Origin: Thermoleophilia bacterium
Lineage (GTDB): Bacteria > Actinomycetota > Thermoleophilia > Gaiellales > Gaiellaceae
Length of the DNA stretch: 64,000 bases
Direction: 5' to 3'
NCBI GenBank assembly: GCA_017882615.1
Contig: JADGPD010000001.1
Coordinates: 46,531-110,530 of the forward strand
Shown one piece after another: positions 38,340 through 64,000 of the stretch. The position numbers and the translations under genes were made by a program. The notes under the pieces were generated by a model, which saw only the letters and a list, made by a program, of their open reading frames with translations, did not search any database and was not told the origin of the DNA. Every line of letters begins with the position of its first letter. Position 1 is the stretch's first letter.

Positions 38340-41300
38340 GTGACCAAGCCTCGGCTGCTGGTTGGGGGACTGGCGCTGATCGCCGCTGCCCTCGCGGCCG
38401 GTGCTTTTATTGTCCTTCGCTCCGGATCCGGTGGTGGCGGCGGCGGCGGCGGCGGAAACGACTCCGCCGTTGACAAGGCGATCGTCGTCGAAGCCGGGAA
38501 GAAATCGGCGGCAGGATTCGAGCTCGGCGGCGAGGGGCACGCGGCGAAGCTGCTCGAAACGGTCGGCTCCTCGGCGCGGATCGTCTTCAGCTCGCAGACC
38601 CCGAGCGAGGTCACCTTGACACGCGGAGTCCCGCTCGAAGTCGACCTGAACTCCGACTCGGTCGCCGACGCGACTGTCACCCTGACCAAGGCCTCGCAGG
38701 ACTCCGCGCAGCTCGAGATCGCGCCCATCAGCCGGCGCAGCTGGGACGAAAGCTCGTTCGAGACGAGGGGCGGCTTTCGCCCCTACAACCATTGGAACAA
38801 CTCGGGCGACGAGGACTTCTCGGTCGTGCCGCAGGGTGGCCCCAATCTGCTGCTCTACGTCTCCGGCGACGGCAAGCTCAACTGGGAACGCTATGACCCC
38901 TCCGGCGCGCTCGTGACCTCGCCGTCGCTCGCGCTCGGCACGCTCGATACGGGCCTTGGCGATGCCGGCAGGGTCAACTCCGTCGACGGCGCGATGGTCG
39001 GGGGCAGGCTCGCGGCCGTGGTCGCGAGCGCCCGGACCGGAGTGTCGCTTCGTAGCTACGACGAGAATCTCGTCGGCGCGGGCCAGGCCTTGTACATAGG
39101 GAAGCAATTGGCGAACCCGATCGTCGTTCCGGTGGGCGAGCGCGCCTATGTGATCGCCTCCGGCAAGTTCGATCCTCCCCAGAACGAAGGCGGCCCCGCT
39201 CGCCTGATCGCGACCGAGGCCGATCTGAACGATGGGCCGATCATCGTTCGCCAGAAGGCGGTGACGAACCCGCAGGGTCGTGAGCTCGACATCGCCTCCG
39301 ACGCCGCGCTCGATTCGGCCAGTGGACGTCTCGTTGTCGCCTACAAGCATCGCCTGCCCAACAACAAGGTCGAGATCCGGCTCTCGGCCCTCGACCCCGA
39401 GACGCTCGCCCCGTCCTGGACCTCCGTCGTGGCGCCCGGCGCCGGGCGCGGCGTCACTCCAAACGTCTGCGTCGCCGCCTCGGGCGGGAAGGCGACAGTT
39501 GTCTGGATCCGAAACAGCGCCGCCGAGGGCGGCCAGCAGCTCAACGTGGTCAGCGCCGACATGGCGAGCGGCAAGCTCAGCCCGATCTGGGGCGGCCCGG
39601 CCGCGAGCTCCTCACCGCGGATGGTCGATCTGCTCCCCTGCGAGCTGGTGCAGAGCGGCTCCGCGCTTTCCTTCGCGTACTTCGACACCTATGCCAAGCC
39701 CGATGCCCCGGCCGGCTCGCCCGATCGCGGCCGCTTCGTGCTCTGGCCCTGGAACGGCAGCGCCTGGGCCGGCCGCTCGACCATCCTCGAGGGCGGCAAG
39801 CCGCTCTACGCCGACCCGATGTTCGACCTGAACGCCTTTGCACAGGTGCCGCTCAAGGCGATCTGCGGTGCGCCGGTTGCGCTCAAAGGCACGATCGTCA
39901 ACCGCGGCTCGCGTCCCGCCCGGGCGGTCACGGTGAGCGCGAGCGTGGGCGGGCAGGAGGCCGGTTCCGTCACGCTCGGCACGGTCGCCGCCGCATCGAG
40001 CGCCGACTTCTCCATACCTTGGACGGTGCCGCCGGGCACGACCGAGGAGCTGGTCAACGTCTCCTTCGCTCTCACGACCACGAGCGATCAGTACACCACC
40101 GGAAACGACAGCGCGAGCTCGACCATCGCGGTGCGCCAGAAGGGCCTCGTCATGGGCCGCGTCGTCAACGCGTCCTCGGACATCAAGCACGAGACACACT
40201 GGTACCCGGGGCTCGAGAACGCCGTCGTCACGATCGGCGGCCGAACGGTGCTTACGGACGTGGCCGGCGCTTTCACGATCGAGGATCTCCCCTTCGGCAG
40301 CTACCCGGTCGCGGTCGAGAAGGAAGGCTTCAACCGGCTCGAGACTCAGGTAACGGTCTCGCGCACCAAGCCGCTCGCCTTCGTCTCGGCCGAGATGGAC
40401 GACCACGGCGTGATCACGCTCCAGGTGGTGGACGACTCTGGCAAGCCGCTCGAGGGCGTCGACGTCTATCTGCACGACTACGACGAGCAGGAACGCACGC
40501 CGTCGAGCGGCGAGTTGAGTTGGGATATCTCGGCTCGCGCTTACTCGTTCTCGTTCGTCAAGCGCGGTTACCGTTCCGTACCCGACCGGCAGATCGCGGT
40601 GACGCTCGGCGAGGAGCGCACCGAGACGATCACCATGGAAGAGATCAAGACCGCCCTCCTCGGAGGTCGCGTCATCGACAAGAAGGGCGCTCCAGTGAGT
40701 AGCGCCACGGTCACGATCACAAACGCGCACGACGAGGTGGTTGCCCGACCGGTCGTGAGCGCGGGAGGCACCTTCGAGCCGGTCGAGCTGCCCGCAAAGC
40801 CCGCCCAGCGCTATACGGTCACCGTCTCGGGTAACGGACTCACGGTCACCGAAGCTGTACTGCTCTACGGTGGCGACGATCTCTTCATGACCTACGGGCT
40901 CGTGCCCGATCGCGGCGAGGCGCGCGTGCGCTCGGCCACCGAGGGCTACACCTCCTGGATGATCAAGGCCGGCTGGCCGGGTCTGGGCCCGGTCTCCGGC
41001 ACCGACATGTACGTCTGGTACGGCAACTACGCGATCAGCGTCGGCGCCGAATACTGGAAGGGAACCGACGAGCTCTCGGCCGTGGACGTGACGGCCTGGG
41101 GCGGTACCTATGAGACTCACGCGACCAAGTCGGAGATCGACTTCTCGGGCTGGTTCGAGCCGCCGGATACGGGCAGCGTCTTCGATCTCACCAAATGGGC
41201 CGATATCCCCAGCACCCTAGCCACGGAACATTCGAGCGACCTGCTCGATATCGCCGGCGCGCTCGTGGACGGCTTCTCGGGAGACGAGGCCGATGACGAC

Positions 41301-41819
41301 TCGGTCGTGACCGGCCAGGGCGAAGAACTCCTCACCTGGAAGGAGGCCCGCAGCGACTTCAGTCCCGAGCCGGAGTTCGACTCCTCGGCGCCGCTCGAGT
41401 CGATGTGGAGCGTGGTCGACGCGGTGCCGAGCTCGTTCGCCATCCCAGTTGTGATCGGCGGCAGCAGCGAGCAACAGACCGCGGTGCGCGTCGATCAGGT
41501 CGATGTCGTCAGGCTCGGCAGCGGCTCGCCCATTGCGCTGAACGGGCCGGAGGCGGAGTGGTACTCGTACCAGGGGCCCGAGGGCACGGAGAACCAAAAC
41601 GGCAAGCGCTACGAGGTGGCGCAGGCGGATGTGCCCTACGACGAGGTGGTGGTCTACGTCTGGCTGACGGTGCAGAAGTACTGGCAGGGCGCTCCCGGCG
41701 GCACCTGCTTCCAGCAGCGCCAGCAGCAGGTCATAGTCTTCCATCCCGGCCCGCAGCGGATGCAGGGCTTCATCGCCCCCGGCGATCTCTATCGCGACTC
41801 GTCGCGCATGGCGTTCTAG
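38340..41819 (+). CDS. Large (1159 aa) membrane-anchored/secreted surface protein with CARDB-like and carboxypeptidase-regulatory-like Ig-fold modules and unknown N- and C-terminal regions
   Basis: N-terminal anchor LLVGGLALIAAALAAGAFIVL followed by a Gly9 linker. A mid-region CARDB-like segment (ALKGTIVNRGSRPARAVTVSASVGG...FSIPWTVPPG). At least three G-R-V-(V/I)-x...G-x-(F/Y) carboxypeptidase-regulatory-like modules. Confidence 0.8.
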   Translation: MTKPRLLVGGLALIAAALAAGAFIVLRSGSGGGGGGGGGNDSAVDKAIVVEAGKKSAAGFELGGEGHAAKLLETVGSSARIVFSSQTPSEVTLTRGVPLEVDLNSDSVADATVTLTKASQDSAQLEIAPISRRSWDESSFETRGGFRPYNHWNNSGDEDFSVVPQGGPNLLLYVSGDGKLNWERYDPSGALVTSPSLALGTLDTGLGDAGRVNSVDGAMVGGRLAAVVASARTGVSLRSYDENLVGAGQALYIGKQLANPIVVPVGERAYVIASGKFDPPQNEGGPARLIATEADLNDGPIIVRQKAVTNPQGRELDIASDAALDSASGRLVVAYKHRLPNNKVEIRLSALDPETLAPSWTSVVAPGAGRGVTPNVCVAASGGKATVVWIRNSAAEGGQQLNVVSADMASGKLSPIWGGPAASSSPRMVDLLPCELVQSGSALSFAYFDTYAKPDAPAGSPDRGRFVLWPWNGSAWAGRSTILEGGKPLYADPMFDLNAFAQVPLKAICGAPVALKGTIVNRGSRPARAVTVSASVGGQEAGSVTLGTVAAASSADFSIPWTVPPGTTEELVNVSFALTTTSDQYTTGNDSASSTIAVRQKGLVMGRVVNASSDIKHETHWYPGLENAVVTIGGRTVLTDVAGAFTIEDLPFGSYPVAVEKEGFNRLETQVTVSRTKPLAFVSAEMDDHGVITLQVVDDSGKPLEGVDVYLHDYDEQERTPSSGELSWDISARAYSFSFVKRGYRSVPDRQIAVTLGEERTETITMEEIKTALLGGRVIDKKGAPVSSATVTITNAHDEVVARPVVSAGGTFEPVELPAKPAQRYTVTVSGNGLTVTEAVLLYGGDDLFMTYGLVPDRGEARVRSATEGYTSWMIKAGWPGLGPVSGTDMYVWYGNYAISVGAEYWKGTDELSAVDVTAWGGTYETHATKSEIDFSGWFEPPDTGSVFDLTKWADIPSTLATEHSSDLLDIAGALVDGFSGDEADDDSVVTGQGEELLTWKEARSDFSPEPEFDSSAPLESMWSVVDAVPSSFAIPVVIGGSSEQQTAVRVDQVDVVRLGSGSPIALNGPEAEWYSYQGPEGTENQNGKRYEVAQADVPYDEVVVYVWLTVQKYWQGAPGGTCFQQRQQQVIVFHPGPQRMQGFIAPGDLYRDSSRMAF
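38430..38456 (+). repeat. Coding GGY trinucleotide microsatellite (GGT x2, GGC x6, GGA) encoding Gly9
   Basis: Read directly. Six perfect GGC units at 38436-38453. Confidence 0.9.
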
Positions 41820-48762: not shown

Positions 48763-48835
48763 AGCCCTCTCACGGACTCGAACCGTGGACCCCCTCCTTA
48801 CCATGGAGGTGCTCTACCAACTGAGCTAAGAGGGC
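48763..48835 (-). tRNA. tRNA-Thr (anticodon GGT)
   Basis: Manual cloverleaf fold: acceptor GCCCTCT/AGAGGGC, D-arm GCTC..GAGC, anticodon stem CCTCC/GGAGG with loop ATGGTAA, T-arm CACGG-TTCGAGT-CCGTG. CCA is not encoded. Confidence 0.9.
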
Positions 48836-49850: not shown

Positions 49851-49932
49851 TGGGGGAGGGAGGATTCGAACCTCCGTAGGCTGAGCCGACGGGTTTACAG
49901 CCCGCTCCCTTTGGCCGCTCGGGCACTCCCCC
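49851..49932 (-). tRNA. tRNA-Tyr (anticodon GTA), long variable arm
   Basis: Manual fold: acceptor GGGGGAG/CTCCCCC, anticodon stem GCGGG/CCCGT with loop CTGTAAA, long variable arm, T-arm GGAGG-TTCGAAT-CCTCC. CCA is not encoded. Confidence 0.9.
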
Positions 49933-50177: not shown

Positions 50178-51398
50178 GTGCCGATGCAACCGCGGATGGA
50201 ACTTGACGACCTCCTTACCCGTGTAGTCGAGATCGGGGGCTCCGACCTTCACCTCAAGTTGGGTCAGCCGCCGATCGTCAGGCGAGATGGTGAGCTCGGC
50301 GCGCTCGATGGCTTTCCGCCTTTGGGGCCGAAAGAGCTGAACACCATCCTCGAGACGCTAACCAGGCATCTCCCGAGCAAGCTGCAGGAGTTCCGTCAGA
50401 CGGGCGAGCTCGATATGGCCTTCACGCATCCGAGTCTGCCGCGCTTCCGAGTCAACGGATTCAGGCAGCGCGGCGCTATCTCGTTCGCCTTCCGCGTCAT
50501 CCCGCGCGAGATTCCGACCTTCGAGCAGCTCGAGCTACCGCCCGGGGTGGCCAACCTCGCCAGCTACCACCGCGGACTCGTACTCGTCACCGGCGCGACC
50601 GGAGCGGGCAAGTCGACCACCCTTGCGGCGATGGTCGACCACATCAACCGCACGCGCCGGCAGCACATACTCACGATCGAGGATCCGATCGAGATCCTTC
50701 ATGCCGATCGCGGCTGCATCGTCAACCAACGCGAGATCGGCCTGGATTCCGCCTCCTTCGGCCAGGCGCTGCGGCGCGCCCTGCGCCAGGACCCGGATGT
50801 GATCTTGATCGGCGAGCTGCGTGACCGGGAGACCGCCGAGACGGCGCTACAAGCCGCCGAGTCCGGTCACCTGGTGATGTCGACCATGCACACGATCGAC
50901 GCTTCCGAGACGGTTTCACGCCTCGTTGAGCTGTTCCAGGAGACCAAGCAGGCACAGATCCGCTCGATTCTCGCGGGCGTGCTGCGTGGCGTCGTCAGCC
51001 AGCGCCTGCTGCCGCGTATCGGCGGCGGCCGCGTCGCGGCGGTCGAAGTGATGGTCACGAACGCCCGCATCGCCGATCTGATCCGCGAGGGCAAGGGGGA
51101 GGAGATTCCCGACGCGATCGCAGACGGCGCCTTCTTCCAGATGCAGACTTTCGCGCAGTCGTTGACCTCGCTAGTGCTCGAGGGGAAGGTCGACCGGGAG
51201 ATCGCCGCCAACGCGGCGTCGAATCGCCACGATTTCCTTGTTCAGATCGAGCATGCGACCAAGAGCCAGGCCGCTGGGGAGCAGGGAAAGGACACGGCCG
51301 ACGGCACCCCGGACGGACTTGGAGCTGCGCTCGCGCGTAGCGCGGCGGGCGCGTCGCCCGACGCTGGATCGCTCAGGGTCGCCGGTCCGGACGGATGA
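50178..51398 (+). CDS. pilT: Type IV pilus retraction ATPase PilT
   Basis: 406 aa with GGSDLHL, Walker A GATGAGKSTT, Asp/His boxes (ILIGELRD, GHLVMSTMHT), and a PilT-specific AIRNLIREgK-like ARIADLIREGK. Low-complexity C-terminal extension of about 45 aa. The start could be the ATG at 50196. Confidence 0.9.
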   Translation: MPMQPRMELDDLLTRVVEIGGSDLHLKLGQPPIVRRDGELGALDGFPPLGPKELNTILETLTRHLPSKLQEFRQTGELDMAFTHPSLPRFRVNGFRQRGAISFAFRVIPREIPTFEQLELPPGVANLASYHRGLVLVTGATGAGKSTTLAAMVDHINRTRRQHILTIEDPIEILHADRGCIVNQREIGLDSASFGQALRRALRQDPDVILIGELRDRETAETALQAAESGHLVMSTMHTIDASETVSRLVELFQETKQAQIRSILAGVLRGVVSQRLLPRIGGGRVAAVEVMVTNARIADLIREGKGEEIPDAIADGAFFQMQTFAQSLTSLVLEGKVDREIAANAASNRHDFLVQIEHATKSQAAGEQGKDTADGTPDGLGAALARSAAGASPDAGSLRVAGPDG

Positions 51399-53008
51399 AG
51401 CGGGCGCTAGCGGGCGCCCTGCTGGCGTTCGCGCTTTGTGCCGGGACCGCGAGCGGCGACACCTTCACGGTCGTCTCTCCGTCCAGCCCGTCCTCGACGC
51501 TCGCCGGCGGCGGGCTGCCGAGCTCCCAGATCCCGAACGTCTCGGGCTCGCTTGCGCTCCCGTTGGCCTGGACCGAGCGCGCCGGCGAGGAGACCGCGCT
51601 CACGTCCGCTCAGTTGCGTGGCATCTGGCAGTCGGCCGGCGTCGCCTACGGCGTCCCTTGGTCGGTGCTGGCGGCGATCAACAAGGTCGAGTCGAACTTC
51701 GGTCGCAACATGGGCCCGAGCTCGGCCGGCGCGGTCGGCTGGATGCAGTTCATGCCCGACACCTGGCTGCGCTGGGGTGCCGATTATGACGGGAACGGAG
51801 TGGCCGACCCCTGGAACGCCAAGGACGCTGTGTTCTCAGCCGCGCGCTACCTGGCCGCTGCAGGCGGTGCGAATGACATCTCGCGAGGCGTTTTCGCCTA
51901 CAACCATGCTCAGTGGTATGTGGACGAAGTGCTCTCCCTGGCCCGACTGTTGGGCAATGACGGCTCGCTCAGCTTCTCACTGGACGAGCTGCAAGTGAGC
52001 CTGGAGAAAGCCGAGCAACGAGTCGCCTCGCTCAGCCAGCAGATCGCCCAGACCAACGCCCGCGCGAATGCGCTTGGGCATCGAGCGCAGCGAATGCTCG
52101 CCGCCGCCGAGACGATCAAGCTGATCAACGATCGCTCCGCCGCGCGCGCGCGAGCGGCCCGGGTGCAGATACAGGCCAACTCCCTCGAGGCGCGGCTTCC
52201 GGACTTGAGTGCGGCGCTGGACAAGGCCAAGACGAACCTCGCGAGCGCACGGGCAAGCGCGCAGCCGCAGTCGTTCAACTCCGGCACCTCCGTCTACCTT
52301 GCCAGCGCGCTCTACCAGAACGGCTACGTCTTTCCCGTCGGCGGCGGGCCGAGCCGAGTCTCGGTCGGGCACACGCACCACGACTATCCGGCAGCGGACA
52401 TTGCGGCGCCTGCCGGCTCGCCTGTCTACGCGCTTGCGGACGGAACCGTCGCCAAGGCCTGGCGCACCATCGACCCTCTCTGCGGCATCGGCCTGCGCTT
52501 CCGCACAGACGACGGCCGGACCTGGGCCTATTGCCATCTCTCCTACCTCGAGCCCTCGACCGTGACCGGCGCGCGGCTGACGGCCGGGGCGCTGATCGGC
52601 CTCGTCGGCTCGACGGGACACGCGACCGGACCGCACCTGCATCTCGGGCTGCTTCCCTCGAGCGAAGGCTATCCACAGAGTCAGCCCTGGTTCCAGAGCT
52701 TCGCCGGCGTCGCGTACCGCTGGCAGGACGCGAGTACGCCGTCCGTACCCGGAGTCTCCTCGTCGCTCGGCGCACCGGCGGTGTTTGCCGTCGTGAGCGG
52801 CGCGGCCGGTCTGTCGACGGACAGCACCTGGGCGGAGTCCTCCCAGACGGTCCTACCGTCTACCATCTCGGAGCCGAGCTCGAGCTCGGCTGTCAGCCAA
52901 AGCTCTCTCTTCGCAGCCGCGCCCGGAAGGTCCGCCTCGCCGAGGTCGTCGGCGGGCGCCGAGCCGTCCCAAAGCGTGCAGGGTTCGGCTATTCCATTCA
53001 GTAGATAG
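51395..53008 (+). CDS. Secreted bifunctional murein hydrolase: MltB-like lytic transglycosylase (SLT_2) domain, coiled coil, and M23 metallopeptidase domain
   Basis: Signal peptide. VESNFGRNMG..AVGWMQFMPDTW..DYDGNGVADPWN (SLT_2), a central Ala/Gln/Arg-rich helical region, then HHDYPAADIAAPAGSPV and GSTGHATGPHLHLG (M23). ATGA overlap with the pilT stop. Confidence 0.8.
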   Translation: MKRALAGALLAFALCAGTASGDTFTVVSPSSPSSTLAGGGLPSSQIPNVSGSLALPLAWTERAGEETALTSAQLRGIWQSAGVAYGVPWSVLAAINKVESNFGRNMGPSSAGAVGWMQFMPDTWLRWGADYDGNGVADPWNAKDAVFSAARYLAAAGGANDISRGVFAYNHAQWYVDEVLSLARLLGNDGSLSFSLDELQVSLEKAEQRVASLSQQIAQTNARANALGHRAQRMLAAAETIKLINDRSAARARAARVQIQANSLEARLPDLSAALDKAKTNLASARASAQPQSFNSGTSVYLASALYQNGYVFPVGGGPSRVSVGHTHHDYPAADIAAPAGSPVYALADGTVAKAWRTIDPLCGIGLRFRTDDGRTWAYCHLSYLEPSTVTGARLTAGALIGLVGSTGHATGPHLHLGLLPSSEGYPQSQPWFQSFAGVAYRWQDASTPSVPGVSSSLGAPAVFAVVSGAAGLSTDSTWAESSQTVLPSTISEPSSSSAVSQSSLFAAAPGRSASPRSSAGAEPSQSVQGSAIPFSR

Positions 53009-58123: not shown

Positions 58124-58320
58124 CTGAATGGAGTTTCGGCATATCCGAGCGAGAACTCGTCCCCCAATATCGCTATACGGGGTACCCGTTTTGGTTTTGG
58201 GTTTTAGCGCTTCAAATCTCGCTTCGGGCCGGTTTGGAAGGGGTGAGCGCGGCGCGGGCGAAAATGCACGCGCTAGCCTTGGCGCGAAAGCGCCCCAGAG
58301 AACAGGAGCCCGCGCCGGCG

Positions 58321-59067
58321 ATGAACGTAGCTTTCCCGATTCTCATGCTTCTGCCGGGGCTCGCGCTCGGTAGCTTTCTCAACGTCGTCGCCGCGCGCGT
58401 ACCGCGACACGAGTCGATCGCCTTCCCCGGCTCGCACTGCATGACCTGCGGCCACGCGATCGCCTGGTACGACAACATCCCGCTCGTCTCCTACATCGTC
58501 TTGCGCGGCCGCTGCCGCAACTGCGAATCGGCGATCGGGCTGCGCTATCCGGCCGTCGAGCTTGCGACGGCGCTGCTCGTGTCCGGATGCGTCTGGAAGT
58601 TCGGGTTTCACTTGGAGACCTTGCTCGCGGTTTTCTTCTCCGCGGTGCTGGTCGCCATCTCGGCCGCCGATCTCGAGCACCGCATCGTTCCGAACGTGAT
58701 CGTGCTCCCCGCCGCCGTGATCACGCTCGGCGCCCAGACCGCTCTACATCTCTCCTTCGAATGGACGATCGCCGCCTTCGCGGCATCGGGCTTCCTGCTC
58801 CTGACGGCGCTGCTCTATCCGGGCGGAATGGGTATGGGCGACGTGAAGCTGGCCTTTCTGCTCGGCGCGATGCTCGGTCGCACGGTTGCCGTCGCGCTCG
58901 CCGCCGGCATGATCAGCGCGCTCGTGCCCTCGATCTGGCTGTTCATCCGGCACGGCTCGAAGGCGCGCAAGATGAAGATTCCCTTCGCTCCCTTCCTGGC
59001 GCTCGGCGCCATCGTGGCCCTCTTCGCAGGCAAAGAGTTGCTCGACGCCTACCTGTCGTTCTTCTAG
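58321..59067 (+). CDS. pilD: Prepilin peptidase (A24 family) PilD
   Basis: 248 aa from MNVAFPIL. CMTCGH...CRNC zinc cluster, the two catalytic Asp contexts (AADLEH, GMGMGDVKL), 7-8 TM. Confidence 0.88.
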   Translation: MNVAFPILMLLPGLALGSFLNVVAARVPRHESIAFPGSHCMTCGHAIAWYDNIPLVSYIVLRGRCRNCESAIGLRYPAVELATALLVSGCVWKFGFHLETLLAVFFSAVLVAISAADLEHRIVPNVIVLPAAVITLGAQTALHLSFEWTIAAFAASGFLLLTALLYPGGMGMGDVKLAFLLGAMLGRTVAVALAAGMISALVPSIWLFIRHGSKARKMKIPFAPFLALGAIVALFAGKELLDAYLSFF

Positions 59068-59205: not shown

Positions 59206-60996
59206 ATGGCAGAAGAACGCCAGTCCACGAAGAGCGGGGGACGAGCGGGCGCGCGCAGCAGCGCACGTCCGTTGGCCGGCGCGCGACAGATCAACGAGCT
59301 CGTAGAGCTTCTCGGGGATCTGCTCGAGGCAACCGGTCTCGTCACGCCCGACAAGCTCGCCGAAGCGCGCAGCGATGCCGGGGCGTCCGGATCGCTCGTC
59401 GCGGCGCTCACCGAGAAGGGCGTGATCCCCGCGGCACGGGTGGCCGAGGTCCGGGCGTCGCACTACCACTTACCGCTGATCTCTCTCGGAGACGAGAAAA
59501 TCTCTCCCGACGCGGTTGCGTCGATTCCGATTCACGTGCTCGAGCGCGTCGTCGCCCTGCCTTACAAGCTTTCGGGCGAGCGCCTGCAGGTTGCAATCGC
59601 CGATCCCTCCGACGTGAGCGGCGTCGATGAGCTGAAGCTCGCGACGCGCTTCCAGATCGAGCTGGGTGTCGCGTCGAGCGAGGAGATCGTCACCGAGCTT
59701 CAGGGACTTTTGCGCCAGAGCGAGACCCTTCACGCTCAATCGGCGGCGCTGGAAGACGTAGAGGTGGTCGAAGAAGGCGTGGGCGAGGTCGACGATCTCG
59801 AGGCCGACGACGGTATCTCAGACGCGCCGCTCGTGCGCCTCGTCAACGCGATCATCTTCCAGGGCGCCGAGGACGGGGCATCGGACATTCACTTCATGCC
59901 CGAGGAGGACGCGCTCGTCATCCGCTACCGAATCGACGGCGTGCTGCAAGAGGTTCAGCGCGTCCCGCGACGCATGGCTTCGGGTGTCACCACGCGCCTC
60001 AAGGTGCTGGCCAAGCTCGACATCGCCGAACGGCGCAAGCCACAGGACGGCCGCATCTCGCTGAACGCCAAGGCGGCAGGACGGATGCTCGATATTCGTG
60101 TCGCGGTGCTGCCGACGGTCGAAGGCGAATGCGTAGTGATGCGCCTGATCGACAAGTCGAGAAAGACGCCGACACTGGAGGGGCTCGGTCTGGCCGAGGA
60201 AATGCGCGAGGAGCTGGAGCATGTGGTCAAGAAGCCGACCGGCACCCTGCTCGTCACCGGGCCGACCGGTTCCGGTAAGTCGACCACGCTGTATGCCGCC
60301 TTGCACATCGTCGCTCAGCCCGAGGTCAACGTCATCACCGTCGAGGATCCGGTCGAGTACCGGCTCCAGGGAATCAACCAGGTTCAGATCAACACCAAGG
60401 CCGGTTTGACCTTCGCGGCCGTCCTGCGCTCGATCCTGCGTGCGGATCCCGACATCCTGATGGTGGGGGAGATTCGCGACTCCGAGACGGCCAAGATCTC
60501 GATCGAGGCGGCACTCACGGGGCACATGGTGCTCTCGTCGCTGCATACCAACGACGCTCCGAGCGCGCTCACGCGGCTGAACGAGATGGGCGTCGAGCCG
60601 TTTCTAACCAGCGCCGCCGTCTCGGGCGTACTGGCTCAGCGCCTGGCGCGGCGCCTTTGCACGAACTGCGCCGAGATGTACACGCCCTCGGTCGGCGAGA
60701 TGGTCGCGGCGAACGTCTCGCCCAGCATCGCAGCCCAGCTCGATGGGATGGCCTTCTATCGCAAAGTCGGCTGCCCACGTTGCAACCAGACCGGCTTCAA
60801 GGGCCGAGTCGGCATCTTCGAGTTCCTGAACATGAGCGACGAGCTGGCCGCTTACTCGGCGACGAAGCCGTCACACGAGGAACTGAGGACGCGCGCGATC
60901 GATCTGGGCATGCGCACGATGTGGGACGAAGGAATGAGCAAGGTCGCCCAGGGGTTGACGTCGATTGAGGAGCTAGCACGTGTCGTTGCGACCTAG
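59206..60996 (+). CDS. pilB: Type IV pilus assembly ATPase PilB (GspE family)
   Basis: 596 aa. N-terminal T2SSE_N-type domain, Walker A GPTGSGKSTT, GEIRD, GHMVLSSLHTND, and a tetracysteine CTNC..CPRC. Confidence 0.9.
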   Translation: MAEERQSTKSGGRAGARSSARPLAGARQINELVELLGDLLEATGLVTPDKLAEARSDAGASGSLVAALTEKGVIPAARVAEVRASHYHLPLISLGDEKISPDAVASIPIHVLERVVALPYKLSGERLQVAIADPSDVSGVDELKLATRFQIELGVASSEEIVTELQGLLRQSETLHAQSAALEDVEVVEEGVGEVDDLEADDGISDAPLVRLVNAIIFQGAEDGASDIHFMPEEDALVIRYRIDGVLQEVQRVPRRMASGVTTRLKVLAKLDIAERRKPQDGRISLNAKAAGRMLDIRVAVLPTVEGECVVMRLIDKSRKTPTLEGLGLAEEMREELEHVVKKPTGTLLVTGPTGSGKSTTLYAALHIVAQPEVNVITVEDPVEYRLQGINQVQINTKAGLTFAAVLRSILRADPDILMVGEIRDSETAKISIEAALTGHMVLSSLHTNDAPSALTRLNEMGVEPFLTSAAVSGVLAQRLARRLCTNCAEMYTPSVGEMVAANVSPSIAAQLDGMAFYRKVGCPRCNQTGFKGRVGIFEFLNMSDELAAYSATKPSHEELRTRAIDLGMRTMWDEGMSKVAQGLTSIEELARVVAT

Positions 60997-61065
60997 ACCT
61001 CAGCGCTACAGTGTGCGTGGCAACGCGCTCGAAGTCGGGCGCCGGTGATTGCGGAGGCGTGAGAA

Positions 61066-63174
61066 GTGCCGTTTCTTCGTCGTAGACAAGAGAACGAGCC
61101 CGATACCCCGGCTGCGGGTGTCGTACCGGCGGCGCCTGAAACCGCCGAGGCAGCGCCTGCGTTTGCGCCTGCGCCAGAGGCGCCGCTCGTCGGCGAGTAT
61201 CCGCAGACTGCCGAGACGCCGGTGGAATCGCAGTTTCAACCCGTCGAGGGTGCCGACGAGATGCTCGACATGCCGCTTGGGACGCTCATCTTTCGCGCCG
61301 GCCTGATTGCCCCCCAACAGCTCGAGGACGCACTGGCCGAAGGGCTTCGCTCGGGCAAGCGGCTGGGCGAGGTACTGCTCTCGCGCGGCTGGCTCAGCGA
61401 GGAGGACCTGAGCCGGCTACTCGCCGGGCAGAAGGGCTTGCCCTACGCCGATCTCGACAAGATCGCCATCGATCGCGAGCTGGCGCAGGCCATGAGCTAC
61501 GACGACGCTCGTAGCGAGATGGCGCTGCCCGTGGTCACCGAGTTTGGTTTGCCGGTGGTCGCGATGGCCGACCCGGACGAAGCGGCGATGGACCGGCTGC
61601 GCGCGCAACTCGGTCCCGAGATTCGGTTCGTCGTCGGAGCGCCGAGCGCGCTCACGCGTCTCATCGAGGAGGTGCTTGGCGGCGCTCCGGCTCAGGCGCT
61701 GTCGGTCACGCCGACCGCACGCGAGCAACACGCGCCGACCGAGCCGAGTGCGGACTATCAGTTCACGCCGGATGAGGCTCCTGTGGCCGAGCCCTCCCCG
61801 GCGGAGACCGCCGTAGAGGCCGAGCCCGTTCTGTCCGAGCCGGCCCCGACCGAGGCGATAGCGCCCGACTCGAGCGAGCAGGAGGCTCCAGCCCCCGTTC
61901 CCGATCCTGCGGCGCAGGAGATCCATCCGATCATGGCCGACGAGGAGGTCGAATACCCGACGTTCACGCAGTATCAGCCCCTTCCGGAGACAGAAATCAT
62001 CGTGGGGTCCGACGAGCAGCTTCCCGCCGAGGTGCAAACGGGAGAATACGGCTACTACGACGATTCTTCGCTGCTGGAAGGCAACGCCTGGCAGGCCGGA
62101 GAGACCGGGCCGCCGGCGGCAGAACCCGCGCCGGAGTTCACCGATATCGGCGCCGATCAGTTCGATGTCGATCGACCATCCGAAGAACCCGTGGCGCCCG
62201 CCGAAGAGGTTGTGCCGACCGAATACGTCGAGCCAATCGAACAGGCCGAGGCACCGAACGAATACGTCGAGCCAATCGAACAGGCCGAGGCACCGACCGA
62301 ATACATCGAGCCAATCGAACAGGCCGAGGCGCAAGTCGAAGAGCCCGCGTTGCCGGCCGAGTATGTCGAGCAGTCGCTCGACGAGGCCGAGACGCCGATC
62401 GAGCAAGCGTGGGAGGAGCCGGCTGCAGAAGCCGTGCCGGAGCCTGTCGCGCCCGAGCTCGAGCAGCCCGCGCCAGCGCCGCCGGAAGAAATCGCAGACG
62501 CGCCGGCGGGCGAAGATGATCCGGCGCTCACGACGCCCGCCTGGATGCGCGGCGAGCTCAACGTCATAACCGCCGACGTGGCCGACTTCATCGATTCCGG
62601 CGCTTCGAGTGCCACTGAGCCTCCGCTTTCAGCGCCGGTCGAGAACGACGCCGCCGAAGTCGAGCCGGCGCCTTTCCTCGCCGCGGACGAGCCGCCGGTC
62701 GACGCGCCGCTTCCCGAAGATGCCACGGACCTGGAAACCGCCGAGCTCGCCGAAAGCGACGCGGTCGCCGCGGAGCTCGATCCCGAGCCTCCCGCCTGGG
62801 CAAGCGAGCCCGTCGAAGCGGTCGAGGAAGCCGCGCTCGAAGGCGCGGTCGACGTTCCGCCCGAGCCGGCGCCCGAGGCCTCGCAGGATGAATCTGCCCC
62901 GAAGGCCGGTCGCGGCGCGTTCGAGCTTGTGCTGCGCCTCGTGGACGGCGATCGGATGCCGATCGGATCCTTCGACACTGTTGAGGGGGCGCAAGAGAAG
63001 GCCGCCGAGGTCGTCAAGCAGTTCGCGGAGATGAAAGAAGGCGGCTGGCCCTTCATCGGCGGTCGCTTCCTGCGCCCGGAGACGATCGTCTCGATCGACG
63101 TCGAACAGCACGGCTCCGGCTGGGGCGGCTCCAACTCGCGCGGGCGCATGTTCTCCGGCGGCGACGGCTCGTAG
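61066..63174 (+). CDS. Orphan MshEN/T2SSE_N-domain protein with long acidic Pro/Glu/Ala-rich repeat region and unknown C-terminal domain
   Basis: 702 aa, GTG start. Residues 70-122 are PLGTLIFRAGLIAPQQLEDALAEG-LRSGK-RLGEVLLSRGWLSEEDLSRLLAGQ (two 24-residue motifs, 5-residue spacer). There is no ATPase domain. About 400 aa are acidic low-complexity, followed by about 90 aa of folded-looking C-terminus. Confidence 0.8.
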   Translation: MPFLRRRQENEPDTPAAGVVPAAPETAEAAPAFAPAPEAPLVGEYPQTAETPVESQFQPVEGADEMLDMPLGTLIFRAGLIAPQQLEDALAEGLRSGKRLGEVLLSRGWLSEEDLSRLLAGQKGLPYADLDKIAIDRELAQAMSYDDARSEMALPVVTEFGLPVVAMADPDEAAMDRLRAQLGPEIRFVVGAPSALTRLIEEVLGGAPAQALSVTPTAREQHAPTEPSADYQFTPDEAPVAEPSPAETAVEAEPVLSEPAPTEAIAPDSSEQEAPAPVPDPAAQEIHPIMADEEVEYPTFTQYQPLPETEIIVGSDEQLPAEVQTGEYGYYDDSSLLEGNAWQAGETGPPAAEPAPEFTDIGADQFDVDRPSEEPVAPAEEVVPTEYVEPIEQAEAPNEYVEPIEQAEAPTEYIEPIEQAEAQVEEPALPAEYVEQSLDEAETPIEQAWEEPAAEAVPEPVAPELEQPAPAPPEEIADAPAGEDDPALTTPAWMRGELNVITADVADFIDSGASSATEPPLSAPVENDAAEVEPAPFLAADEPPVDAPLPEDATDLETAELAESDAVAAELDPEPPAWASEPVEAVEEAALEGAVDVPPEPAPEASQDESAPKAGRGAFELVLRLVDGDRMPIGSFDTVEGAQEKAAEVVKQFAEMKEGGWPFIGGRFLRPETIVSIDVEQHGSGWGGSNSRGRMFSGGDGS
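62221..62337 (+). repeat. Three tandem 39-bp coding repeats (EYVEPIEQAEAP(N/T))
   Basis: Units at 62221-62259, 62260-62298 and 62299-62337. The first two differ at one position; the third diverges at its 3' end. Confidence 0.9.
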
Positions 63175-63298: not shown

Positions 63299-63607
63299 CT
63301 AGCTGACTTCGCAGCCGAGGTACTCGAGCGCGAGCAGCGCTTCCTCGATGTAGGCGGCCGCTTCGTCCTTGCTGCCGAAGTGATACGGGCCCGGATGAAG
63401 CGGCTCGACGCGCAGGCTGTTGGTCGGATAAACATCGCACTCGACCACGAACTGCTCGTCGCGTTCGAACAGGCGCAGAATCACGACGCGGCGTCCGTCC
63501 TTCTTGGCGTGGCGATGGAAGCTCTCCTTGGCGGACGCCTTGCCGCCCTTTTTCGAACTGCCCTTGCCGCCGGAGCGGAGGCCATATTCGTCGGCGAGGT
63601 CGCTCAC
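63299..63607 (-). CDS. Hypothetical protein (102 aa)
   Basis: Lys/Gly-rich basic N-terminus, then a compact domain. ATGA overlap with the upstream ORF's stop. Confidence 0.5.
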   Translation of the reverse strand: MSDLADEYGLRSGGKGSSKKGGKASAKESFHRHAKKDGRRVVILRLFERDEQFVVECDVYPTNSLRVEPLHPGPYHFGSKDEAAAYIEEALLALEYLGCEVS

Positions 63608-63978
63608 GAGGCGCAGCTGATGATCTGGAGTTTCGCCGCGAGGCTGCTCGCACTTGCGATCAGCGCCGCGTTCTTTTGGTCGATCGAGGTAGCGGTCGTC
63701 CGATCGTTACCGCGAAGCGCCGCCGCCTCGGAGCCCATATTGGTTGCGATCTGTTGCAGATCGGCTACGAGTTGAGAGTAATCCTTGGCATTGCCCACGT
63801 TCGCCCTGACGGCGCGAAGCGATTTCGTTTCCCGCGTCAGAGTGGCTGCGGCGCTGTTCATCGCCGCCGCGGCTTGTGCTCGCCCTGCCGCTGTGTCGAG
63901 GTTGGCGCTCTTCGCCTTGCTCAAAGCCAGCGAGAGCGGTCCCGAGAAGCGGCTGCAGATCCTGTCCGCGTCGCTCAC
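63604..63978 (-). CDS. Hypothetical helical protein, 5' end possibly beyond the window
   Basis: 124 aa from GTG 63978, Ala/Ser/Thr-rich and helical. The frame stays open up to position 64000, so the true start may lie outside the window. Confidence 0.45.
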   Translation of the reverse strand: MSDADRICSRFSGPLSLALSKAKSANLDTAAGRAQAAAAMNSAAATLTRETKSLRAVRANVGNAKDYSQLVADLQQIATNMGSEAAALRGNDRTTATSIDQKNAALIASASSLAAKLQIISCAS

Positions 63979-64000
63979 CCAAGGATCGGAGAAGGGATAG

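Follow-up and report, generated by a model that had tools for sequence, protein, structure and literature searches.

An ATPase-less MshEN-domain protein encoded beside pilB in Gaiellales is predicted to bind c-di-GMP and is probably accessory to the type IV pilus

The window studied here is a 64,000-nt stretch of DNA from a Thermoleophilia bacterium of the family Gaiellaceae (assembly GCA_017882615.1, contig JADGPD010000001.1, positions 46,531-110,530 of the forward strand). Close to its 3' end, a likely pilD-pilB-X operon faces two convergent genes. ORF X, or simply X, is the name used for the product of the open reading frame at 61066..63174. The genes and signals of the locus are as follows, in window positions.

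58234..59067, + strand: pilD, prepilin peptidase, first gene of the likely operon (Pfam A24_N_bact and Peptidase_A24)
59206..60996, + strand: pilB, type IV pilus assembly ATPase, 596 aa (T2SSE, E 3e-130; MshEN at residues 87-172; TIGR02538, 568.7 bits)
59308..59469, + strand: degenerate double-motif region of PilB, about residues 35-88 (NF053729, 15.3 bits against a cutoff of 38)
61053..61057, + strand: Shine-Dalgarno sequence GGAGG, 8 nt 5' of the GTG start of X (direct sequence reading)
61066..63174, + strand: ORF X, 702 aa, comprising an MshEN module, an acidic linker and a C-terminal domain (open reading frame, HMMs, homologues)
63299..63607, - strand: orf102, convergent neighbour without a Pfam match (conserved in synteny)
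63604..64000, - strand: 3' part of an orf310 homologue, truncated by the window end, without a Pfam match (synteny)

The open reading frame of X is real, as an earlier note on this DNA had claimed. It has a strong ribosome-binding site and a GC3 of 0.79, and it is conserved in relatives. Many database orthologues begin about 40 aa later, but a downstream start was ruled out for X because the start at 61066 is favoured by the GGAGG site and by the N-terminal peptide PFLRRRQE, which is also kept in a relative (L013). The true start of pilD may be a downstream ATG, since its homologues are 248 aa long. No convincing terminator is seen between pilB and X; a weak candidate at 61056-61070 overlaps the ribosome-binding site and start codon of X and is taken to be a chance match. 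The orf310 fragment is 71% identical to residues 178-308 of a 308-aa protein from a syntenic locus (L001).

X had been called an orphan, a description that fails at the level of the family. Hundreds of homologues exist, all confined to Gaiellales/Thermoleophilia. The gene order pilD-pilB-X-orf102-orf310-pilin is kept in 30 loci, within full type IV pilus clusters, and pilD lies 5' of pilB in syntenic loci as it does here. Across these 30 loci the N-terminal domain of X retains 48-97% identity and PilB identity falls to about 60%. The gaps in pilD-pilB-X range from 69 nt down to a 14-nt overlap. Essentially every syntenic pilus cluster, whether or not it contains X, carries orf102 (41-100% identity). 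That some of these clusters do without X is more in keeping with a regulatory role than with a core one. Three paralogues that combine MshEN with the C-terminal domain have no pilus genes within 6 kb (L037, L039 and L050). Together with the other C-domain proteins found away from pilus loci, they indicate that the module is not pilus-specific.

Three regions make up X, and their features are listed here, all on the + strand.

61273..61344, + strand: motif 1, residues 70-93, PLGTLIFRAGLIAPQQLEDALAEG, with P70 for Arg at position 1 and G93 for Gln at position 24 (alignment of 119 sequences)
61360..61431, + strand: motif 2, residues 99-122, RLGEVLLSRGWLSEEDLSRLLAGQ, consensus complete save W109 (alignment of 119 sequences)
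61435..61686, + strand: MshEN C-terminal subdomain, T2SSE_N1-like, residues 124-207 (PF05157; pLDDT 93-96)
61696..62904, + strand: acidic Pro/Glu/Ala linker, residues 211-613, 403 aa (composition; predicted disorder)
62014..62103, + strand: linker island A, residues 317-346, EQLPAEVQTGEYGYYDDSSLLEGNAWQAGE (high column identity in about 75 close orthologues)
62215..62330, + strand: 39-bp tandem repeat in three copies, EY(V/I)EPIEQAEA x 3, residues 386-424 (TRF, 96% matches)
62530..62607, + strand: linker island B, residues 489-514, TPAWMRGELNVITADVADFIDSGA (conserved in the close-orthologue alignment)
62914..63159, + strand: C-terminal domain, residues 617-698, about 80 aa, with a beta-beta-alpha-beta core (pLDDT 88-95 in the full-length model)

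Residues 70-122 of X (nt 61273-61431) contain two 24-residue motifs joined by a 5-residue spacer (70-93, 94-98 and 99-122) and align without gaps to MshE 9-61. The earlier note had recognised the published MshEN architecture in these residues, which read as it quoted them, and its account of both motifs stands. The consensus RLGxx(L/V/I)(L/V/I)xxG(L/V/I)(L/V/I)xxxxLxxxLxxQ is that of Wang et al. 2016. Motif 2 departs from it only at W109 and fits the relaxed pattern of the same authors; the Trp is hydrophobic, occupies an L/V/I slot and is Leu in 25 of 119 relatives. Motif 1 lacks the Arg and the final Gln. It therefore departs from the strict consensus at both of these positions (1 and 24) and from the relaxed one at position 24, where G93 lies outside [QNKRYWST]; P70 is within [RKPN]. 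The Leu/Gly framework of motif 1 is wholly retained, with F76 filling the second hydrophobic slot. Ten of its residues (P70, L71, G72, T73, F76, R77, G79, L80, L90 and G93) are invariant in the 119 sequences, as are R99, L100, E102, L119 and Q122 of motif 2, and G101 and L115 are kept in 118. The family-invariant deviations P70 and G93 are thus restricted to the positions equivalent to MshE R9 and Q32.

Curated models agree with this reading. The NCBIfam model NF053729 ('c-di-GMP_motif, MshE-related') matches X at residues 70-122 with 54.3-57.6 bits against a cutoff of 38 (E 8e-15), spanning model positions 1-53 of 53, and all 56 family members tested pass it at E <= 1e-9. The Pfam MshEN model PF05157 matches residues 124-207 (E 3.9e-14; 52.8 bits against a threshold of 23.1), where D169 aligns with MshE D108. 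Pfam finds no T2SSE ATPase domain (PF00437) in X, and no EAL or PilZ domain. X is therefore not a secretion ATPase of the PilB/GspE/MshE kind, nor a PilB paralogue in that sense, and the T2SSE_N fold without an ATPase that had been described earlier is borne out.

The profile and AlphaFold comparison proposed in the earlier note points the same way. The AF2 model has a pLDDT of 89-96 over residues 55-210, and the best Foldseek match of this module is c-di-GMP-bound MshE (5HTL; E 3e-9, TM 0.82, 2.3 A over 137 columns, 32% identity), with c-di-GMP-bound PilF GSPII-B at TM 0.80. Known non-binders score below these (TM 0.62 for GSPII-A, about 0.70 for X. citri PilB-N and 0.57-0.70 for XpsE-N). Protein-binding domains with the MshEN fold are also among the structural matches (7LKM and 2D27/2D28). 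None of the eight XpsE substitutions that Wang et al. blame for lost binding is present in X. By curated HMMs and predicted fold, the N-terminal module of X is of the MshEN type, modelled as two subdomains, a four-helix bundle and an alpha/beta T2SSE_N1 subdomain.

X is best classed as an MshEN-domain protein that is predicted, rather than established, to bind c-di-GMP, because its motif 1 lies outside the consensus. Precedents indicate how much this deviation might matter. PilF GSPII-B binds with nanomolar affinity despite Lys and Leu at motif position 1, and replacing the last Gln of motif 1 by Glu reduces affinity only to about 500 nM (PMC11731258). Mutation of MshE R9 or Q32 alters binding less than 5-fold (PMC5013675). 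An Arg at motif position 1 is therefore dispensable. Conversely, PilF GSPII-A still does not bind when its consensus is restored (PMC12002112), so that presence of the motif is not sufficient. In MshEN, guanine is recognised specifically by the Leu triads and by the backbone amides of the Gly and the residue after it (PMC5013675).

The N-terminal domain of PilB itself tells a complementary story. As had been claimed, its motifs are degenerate: the relaxed published motif is absent from PilB in the 30 syntenic loci and in the nearest 120 PilB homologues, and only 5 of 16 adjacent PilB N-termini match NF053729 at all (best E 0.0025). By sequence reading, PilB has R55 at the MshE L29 position, the same change as XpsE L29R. 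Since the same-fold PilB domain is degenerate and the motif of X is intact in 56 of 56 members, upkeep of the motif in X is not explained by fold constraints alone. The N-terminal domains of X and the adjacent PilB share 26% identity, compared with 32% between X and MshE/PilF-B, and on this account X was judged not to be a recent duplicate of its neighbour's N-terminus. In three syntenic relatives (L062-L064), the PilB motifs are equally degenerate and no X gene follows pilB. PilB degeneracy is thus independent of a neighbouring copy of X, which is accessory rather than core.

The linker is very acidic (26% D+E, 1% K+R, net charge -100), and pLDDT values below 50 over most of its length predict disorder. 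Hydropathy in X reaches a maximum too low for a transmembrane segment. Linker length and sequence differ among orthologues, but the region is not as featureless as first supposed. Island A is missing from a distant subgroup. The 13-aa unit of the tandem repeat occurs three times in X, twice in a 93% identical orthologue (P0001) and in none of 15 other orthologues checked.

The C-terminal domain carries the invariant signature WPF..GRFLRP..IVSxD and is present in all 120 X homologues listed. Its wider family has 542 cluster representatives, in all of which it is C-terminal. Its novelty, asserted in the earlier note, has held up in the databases searched: the best PDB profile match is not credible (E 0.05), Foldseek reaches only E 0.33 against the PDB and finds only uncharacterised phage proteins in BFVD (E >= 0.01), and a lenient Pfam scan of 42 members yields no consistent family. 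Weak matches to Sm/Hfq-like proteins (probability at most 0.51, query TM about 0.34) were discarded because the helix of the C-terminal domain lies between strands and is not N-terminal. Members of the family are found fused to an MFS/DUF5317 membrane protein in a non-pilus context, as small open reading frames between housekeeping genes and as a C-domain-only protein within two pilus clusters (L038 and L046). A fusion to ribosomal protein S2 (P0123), in which island B also accompanies the domain, comes from a single 2.8-kb metagenome contig and may be an assembly chimera; it is excluded as evidence. Judged by sequence comparison, the domain is an undescribed family of about 540 clusters and several architectures that merits a database entry.

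Signature expressions detect no GGDEF, EAL or HD-GYP genes in the 740 kb of the window and loci, which says little about c-di-GMP metabolism since this is mostly one pilus neighbourhood repeated. Likewise, Pfam detects no domains of c-di-GMP metabolism in 10 large ORFs of the window. By analogy with C. difficile pilA1, riboswitches were also sought, and Rfam reports no c-di-GMP riboswitch and only two tRNAs in the window and 10 syntenic loci. A literature search on c-di-GMP or pili in Gaiella/Gaiellales retrieved nothing relevant.

These observations suggest that X probably senses c-di-GMP in trans as an accessory of the type IV pilus. The fuller explanation, which makes X a cytoplasmic accessory of the pilus cluster supplying c-di-GMP input to a system whose PilB has lost its own motif, has about an even chance of being correct. 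Residues 70-122 would fold into the four-helix bundle of MshEN, with a single c-di-GMP as ligand. Of the two half-sites, that of motif 2 would be fully canonical, and that of motif 1 would provide the Leu/Gly framework but neither the stacking Arg nor the hydrogen bonds from Gln to the phosphate. For lack of these contacts nanomolar affinity is improbable, and X would probably bind in the sub-micromolar to micromolar range. Binding may re-orient the two MshEN subdomains, as has been shown for PilF GSPII-B, and so change the contacts of X with the pilus machinery. Its partner could be the degenerate N-terminal domain of PilB, PilM/PilC or the products of orf102 and orf310. Contact might be made by the MshEN C-terminal subdomain or by a unit of island B and the C-terminal domain tethered by the acidic linker, and the output would be modulated pilus assembly. 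That sensing may have 'moved' to X, or that X may act on PilB, is suggested by synteny and complementary motif status. The interpretation in the earlier note is accordingly sound for the MshEN type, the missing ATPase, the PilB degeneracy, the C-terminal domain and the adjacency to pilB, and is weakened by the three relatives with equally degenerate PilB and no X.

Motif 1 invariably lacks two ligand-contacting side chains, and a motif does not guarantee binding (PMC12002112). X could accordingly be a nucleotide-independent scaffold or adaptor that uses its MshEN fold for protein contacts, as in XpsE-N/XpsL and Xanthomonas PilB-N/PilZ, while the linker and C-terminal domain tether or localise partners. 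The protein-binding folds among its structural matches and the lack of detectable c-di-GMP metabolism in the sequence scanned also favour this explanation, which we nevertheless regard as somewhat unlikely. The PilB domain of the same fold has no motif in any relative examined, yet the Leu/Gly contacts of X and its R99 and Q122 are near-invariant (n = 119). With contacts kept in X and lost in PilB, selection on the motif is hard to explain without a ligand. A scaffold also sits poorly with a model that lies nearer to ligand-bound binders than to non-binders, and with the uniform passing of the curated motif model.

It is quite unlikely that X is a general c-di-GMP effector with a non-pilus target reached through a promiscuous C-terminal domain, its place beside pilB reflecting only ancestry such as a split or duplicated PilB N-terminus. 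The MFS/DUF5317 fusion, the possible S2 fusion, the small open reading frames amid housekeeping genes, the three paralogues away from pilus genes and the pilus clusters without X are all compatible with such a role. However, adjacency to pilB persists at deep divergence with spacing like that of translationally coupled genes, pilus clusters can hold the C-terminal domain on its own, and the low identity between the two N-terminal domains excludes a recent local duplicate. Very unlikely, finally, is an asymmetric site tuned to another nucleotide such as 3'3'-cGAMP, pGpG or another cyclic dinucleotide. The confinement of the invariant P70 and G93 to the R9 and Q32 equivalents would suit it, and MshEN binds cGAMP weakly (PMC5013675). 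Against it, the guanine-specificity features (Gly amides and Leu triads) are kept in both motifs, and the literature examined holds no precedent for an MshEN domain with other-ligand specificity.

The preferred reading, an accessory c-di-GMP sensor, can be extended into an unlikely scheme. The pilus motor would be 'split', with X as its detachable sensor subunit, and c-di-GMP-loaded X would dock through island B and the C-terminal domain on PilB or PilM/PilC to license extension. The C-terminal domain would serve as an 'address tag' specific to the clade, carried behind long acidic tethers on unrelated proteins (an MFS transporter, possibly S2, and small MshEN_N-half proteins) that recruits them to one site or hub. 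If true, this would amount to a new protein-targeting domain and a new wiring of c-di-GMP to pili in monoderm bacteria.

Among characterised systems, X most resembles MshE of Vibrio cholerae (5HTL) and PilF GSPII-B of Thermus thermophilus (8PDK). It shares with them the fold (TM 0.80-0.82, 32% identity), the pair of 24-residue motifs with a 5-residue spacer, the Leu triads, the Gly positions, the motif-2 Arg and Gln and an association with type IV pili. In those proteins the domain is covalently joined to the T2SSE ATPase that it regulates. X, in contrast, has no ATPase; its motif 1 has Pro for Arg and Gly for Gln, and an acidic linker of 400 aa leads to an unrelated C-terminal domain. The FimX-PilZ-PilB system of Xanthomonas and Pseudomonas offers an analogy of functional logic only, contact with PilB being putative for X. 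Its PilB-N/PilZ complex (7LKM) is among the fold matches of X, but there a degenerate EAL domain serves as receptor and PilZ as its adaptor, with no MshEN sensor, and X has neither EAL nor PilZ.

The architecture is less unprecedented than the earlier note implied. Proteins that join MshEN or MshEN_N to uncharacterised regions and have no secretion ATPase were already catalogued by Wang et al. 2016: P. aeruginosa PA3740, M. xanthus FrgA ('MshEN-UNK-HEAT'), Bdellovibrio Bd2402 and cyanobacterial cce_1044, several of them tied to surface motility. X differs from these in its partner domains, its clade and its fixed site directly 3' of pilB, and its architecture is not in their table. E. coli NfrB, a glycosyltransferase with a C-terminal MshEN, similarly uses the domain as a portable c-di-GMP input to a non-ATPase output, and the N-terminal module of X matches region 481-604 of the NfrB model. 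There the output is the attached enzyme, whereas X has no recognisable enzymatic domain. Polar hub proteins of the FimV/HubP type are presumably comparable in being very acidic, repeat-containing and pilus-associated with a small conserved C-terminal module. The likeness is compositional only, as Pfam reports no LysM, transmembrane or FimV C-terminal match in X.

Gaiellales are actinobacteria that are abundant in soil and peat and almost entirely uncultured, and to our knowledge nothing is known of their second-messenger signalling or pili. X extends a known receptor family and does not overturn current understanding of it. If X binds c-di-GMP, Gaiellales would have their first proposed effector, and a free-standing MshEN protein would constitute a third route to the pilus motor beside the in-cis MshEN domain and the FimX-PilZ relay. 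Its natural Pro/Gly motif 1 would then be a variant already at hand for testing which contacts of MshEN determine affinity.

Protein X, encoded downstream of pilB, belongs to the MshEN domain family by both HMM and fold, and it is not a PilB/MshE ATPase. Its gene lies inside a complete type IV pilus cluster of the monoderm type. Genes for a PilT-like ATPase, an SLT/M23 protein, minor-pilin-like proteins, PilD and PilB precede it in that order, and 3' of X are the convergent orf102 and orf310 and then pilin genes. The mapped features are listed here.

48763-48835 (-), tRNA gene, just upstream of the pilus cluster start
49851-49932 (-), tRNA gene, just upstream of the pilus cluster start
50178..51398, PilT-like ATPase gene, which opens the cluster
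51395..53008, second gene of the cluster, encoding a 537-aa SLT plus Peptidase_M23 protein
59206..60996, pilB, adjoining X and encoding an ATPase domain and an MshEN-fold N-terminal domain
61066..63174 (+), X, an open reading frame of 702 aa with a GTG start
62215-62330, 39-bp x 3 tandem repeat inside the acidic linker of X, encoding EY(V/I)EPIEQAEA
63299-63607 (-), orf102, convergent neighbour of X, no Pfam match
63604-64000 (-), orf310 homologue, convergent neighbour of X, no Pfam match

The X reading frame proposed in the earlier note is confirmed at these coordinates by a GGAGG Shine-Dalgarno sequence 8 nt before the GTG, a GC3 of 0.79 that is usual for coding sequence in the window, and an N-terminal peptide, PFLRRRQE, that is found again in a divergent orthologue (locus L013). 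A full-length AlphaFold2 model built from a 56-sequence family alignment contains two confident domains, at residues 55-210 (pLDDT 89-96) and 615-685 (pLDDT 88-95), separated by a stretch of about 400 residues in which pLDDT is mostly under 50. This linker (residues 211-613) is rich in Glu, Ala and Pro, with 26% D+E, 1% K+R and a net charge of -100. No segment of X is hydrophobic enough to span a membrane. The linker is not featureless, for it carries two islands, A (residues 317-346, EQLPAEVQTGEYGYYDDSSLLEGNAWQAGE) and B (489-514, TPAWMRGELNVITADVADFIDSGA), that are strongly conserved among about 75 close orthologues and absent from more distant pilB-linked family members. The tandem repeat represents a recent expansion or copy-number polymorphism, since X has three copies, the 93%-identical protein P0001 has two and 15 other orthologues checked have none.

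The reading of residues 70-122 as two MshEN motifs (70-93 and 99-122) agrees exactly with the sequence of X. NCBIfam model NF053729 ('c-di-GMP_motif, MshE-related') matches it over the whole model length with 54.3 bits, above its curated cutoff of 38, and Pfam MshEN matches residues 124-207 (E 3.9e-14); judging by these scores, the motif match is far beyond chance. Pfam and NCBIfam HMM scans detect no T2SSE ATPase domain in X, as the earlier note had supposed. When the predicted N-module is compared with the PDB by Foldseek, the superposition that note had called for, the top match is c-di-GMP-bound MshE of Vibrio cholerae (5HTL; E 3e-9, 32% identity, TM 0.82 on target, 2.3 A over 137 columns), followed by c-di-GMP-bound structures of Thermus thermophilus PilF GSPII-B (TM 0.80). 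Non-binders stand lower: PilF GSPII-A (TM 0.62), the PilB-N of the Xanthomonas citri PilB-N/PilZ complex (TM ~0.70, 12% identity) and XpsE-N (TM 0.57-0.70). X has none of the eight substitutions to which Wang et al. attributed the loss of binding in XpsE.

Residues of X and their MshE equivalents in an ungapped alignment
P70, R9
G72, G11
L86 and L90, L25 and L29
G93, Q32
R99, R38
L100, L39
G101, G40
L115 and L119, L54 and L58
Q122, Q61
D169, D108

X has 655 homologues at E <= 1e-3. The 120 among them that were listed all have its architecture, in which a linker of variable make-up joins the MshEN module to the C-terminal domain, and NF053729 matches each of 56 members tested at E <= 1e-9. Across 119 family sequences, P70, L71, G72, T73, F76, R77, G79, L80, L90 and G93 are invariant in motif 1, as are R99, L100, E102, L119 and Q122 in motif 2, with G101 and L115 kept in 118. 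Such constancy indicates that the motif is under strong selection.

The adjacent PilB has diverged in the opposite direction. Its N-terminal domain, already described as degenerate, scores only 15.3 bits against NF053729, and the relaxed motif is absent from all 120 of the nearest PilB homologues and from every PilB of the 30 syntenic loci. Only five of 16 X-adjacent PilB N-termini match NF053729 at all (best E 0.0025). Read from the sequence, the window PilB carries several XpsE-type changes, for example R55 at the L29 position, which is invariant in the PilB alignment. Two side-by-side genes with the same fold thus differ at ligand-contact positions, the motif being kept in X and lost in PilB, and this opposite divergence is the best argument that a ligand may lie behind motif retention in X. 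A separate subgroup of PilB homologues of ~775 aa (P0312-P0314, P0319, P0321; L062 6001-8334) has MshEN domains in tandem, two per protein, and in each of them the c-di-GMP motif is degenerate.

The order pilD-pilB-X, whose conservation in relatives the earlier note had made a check on its proposal, is kept in 30 loci, over which identity falls from 97% to 48% for the X N-domain and from 99% to about 60% for PilB. Between pilB and X the distance varies from 69 nt of intergenic sequence to an overlap of 14 nt, with no convincing terminator between them, and the three genes probably form an operon. Longer loci additionally encode a second PilT-like ATPase, PilM/N/O and PilC. The SLT/Peptidase_M23 protein probably remodels the cell wall so that the pilus of a monoderm can pass through it. 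Homologues of orf102 and orf310 are kept in essentially all syntenic pilus clusters, with or without X, and their products are candidate pilus components or X partners. Two loci have a 667-687-aa protein between orf310 and the pilin genes (L001, 13384-15447, -; L064, 9918-11921, -) with a weak match to PMT_2 (glycosyltransferase family 39-like), below Pfam's gathering score; perhaps this enzyme glycosylates pilin. Elsewhere in the window, a protein of 1159 aa encoded at 38340-41819 (+) contains multiple repeats of the CarboxypepD_reg and PEGA-like types and has no connection with X.

A reverse search, starting from PilB homologues, identified three clusters (L062, L063, L064) that keep the whole syntenic frame and lack X; profile searches of their six-frame translations found neither motif nor C-terminal domain in them. 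Because the PilB ATPase domains of these clusters resemble that of the window more (74-76% identity) than do those of the distant X-carrying group (69-71%), lineage-specific loss of X is suggested. A Y1 (IS200/IS605-type; Y1_Tnp) transposase gene occupies the slot of X between pilB and orf102 in L062 (8771-9421) and L064 (7915-8460), pointing to a loss or replacement event here, and in a fourth cluster the slot holds a 719-aa ORF without Pfam match. X is therefore accessory, and PilB degeneracy is independent of a neighbouring X. It is plausible, as the earlier note suggested, that a separate protein has taken over sensing. Genomes without X in the cluster might carry an unlinked paralogue, as MshEN plus C-domain paralogues with no pilus genes nearby are present in L037, L039 and L050.

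The C-terminal domain was rightly called uncharacterised: it has no match in Pfam or NCBIfam, in the PDB by sequence profile or fold, or in BFVD by fold. The signature WPF..GRFLRP..IVSxD is invariant in its core, a beta-beta-alpha-beta arrangement at about residues 617-681. When 1.84 billion cluster representatives were searched by profile, 542 proteins matched (E <= 1e-3), and in these the domain is always at the C-terminus; of 144 representatives that this search added, 43 (about 30%) have the MshEN module in full or in part. A genome scan with the C-domain profile gave 56 loci, all from MAGs labelled Gaiellaceae, Gaiellales, Thermoleophilia or unclassified Actinomycetota/Actinomycetes. Other contexts (L053, 4159-6255; L055, 2151-4346; L065, 1156-2715; L045, 5863-6207; L042, 5482-6183; P0200; P0123) include small proteins, ~230-aa proteins that combine an MshEN_N-like half with an 'EPPLSP' N-terminus, a 114-aa ORF flanked by a priA-like gene and def/fmt, and a fusion to a DUF5317+MFS membrane protein. 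A domain-only protein lies beside pilD in L038 and L046. One ribosomal protein S2 fusion that includes island B was seen on only one contig of 2.8 kb, which may be chimeric through misassembly. From these varied contexts, the domain has the look of a module for interaction or targeting that can be carried at the C-terminus of different proteins.

We consider it fairly probable that X binds c-di-GMP. In MshE, mutations of the Leu/Gly framework each cost more than 10-fold in affinity and changes to R9 or Q32 less than 5-fold (PMC5013675); this hydrophobic framework, the part that matters most, is complete in X. PilF GSPII-B binds with nanomolar affinity without Arg at position 1 of either motif, and a Q-to-E change at the end of its motif 1 shifts the Kd only to about 500 nM (PMC11731258). 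Its ligand entry requires unwinding of the first helical turn, and its affinity rises when Gly is substituted immediately ahead of the motif (PMC11731258). The Pro at position 1 of motif 1 in X, permitted by the relaxed search pattern of Wang et al. (PMC5013675), would be at least compatible with such unwinding. However, motif 1 keeps X from fully matching the published definition of a binding-competent MshEN, and G93, which even the relaxed pattern does not allow, counts against binding. Restoring the full consensus in PilF GSPII-A does not make it bind (PMC12002112), so the motif is necessary but not sufficient. Scans of the window and available loci, an uninformative sample that mostly repeats the same pilus neighbourhood, found no diguanylate cyclase and, with Rfam, no c-di-GMP riboswitch; we found no literature on c-di-GMP in the Gaiellales/Thermoleophilia clade.

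Our best explanation, held at about even odds, is that X serves the pilus as an accessory c-di-GMP sensor acting in trans. The MshEN module would bind c-di-GMP, its subdomains would re-orient, and either the MshEN C-subdomain or the tethered unit of island B and C-domain might pass the signal on to PilB or to the assembly platform. A nucleotide-independent scaffold, which the failure of restored GSPII-A keeps in view and the opposite divergence of X and PilB speaks against, appears unlikely. We give less weight still to a c-di-GMP effector with a target other than the pilus; the paralogues away from pilus genes would suit it, and the 30 loci with X beside pilB would not. A receptor for a different nucleotide, which the invariantly asymmetric ligand site of X suggests, seems quite improbable.

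The closest functional analogy to an accessory sensor of this kind is the FimX-PilZ-PilB relay. Proteins with MshEN and no ATPase are already known, as Supplementary Table 4 of Wang et al. lists PA3740, FrgA and Bd2402, which like X are fused to uncharacterised regions. What is new in X is its architecture, its clade, its fixed position beside a motif-less PilB, and its C-terminal domain.
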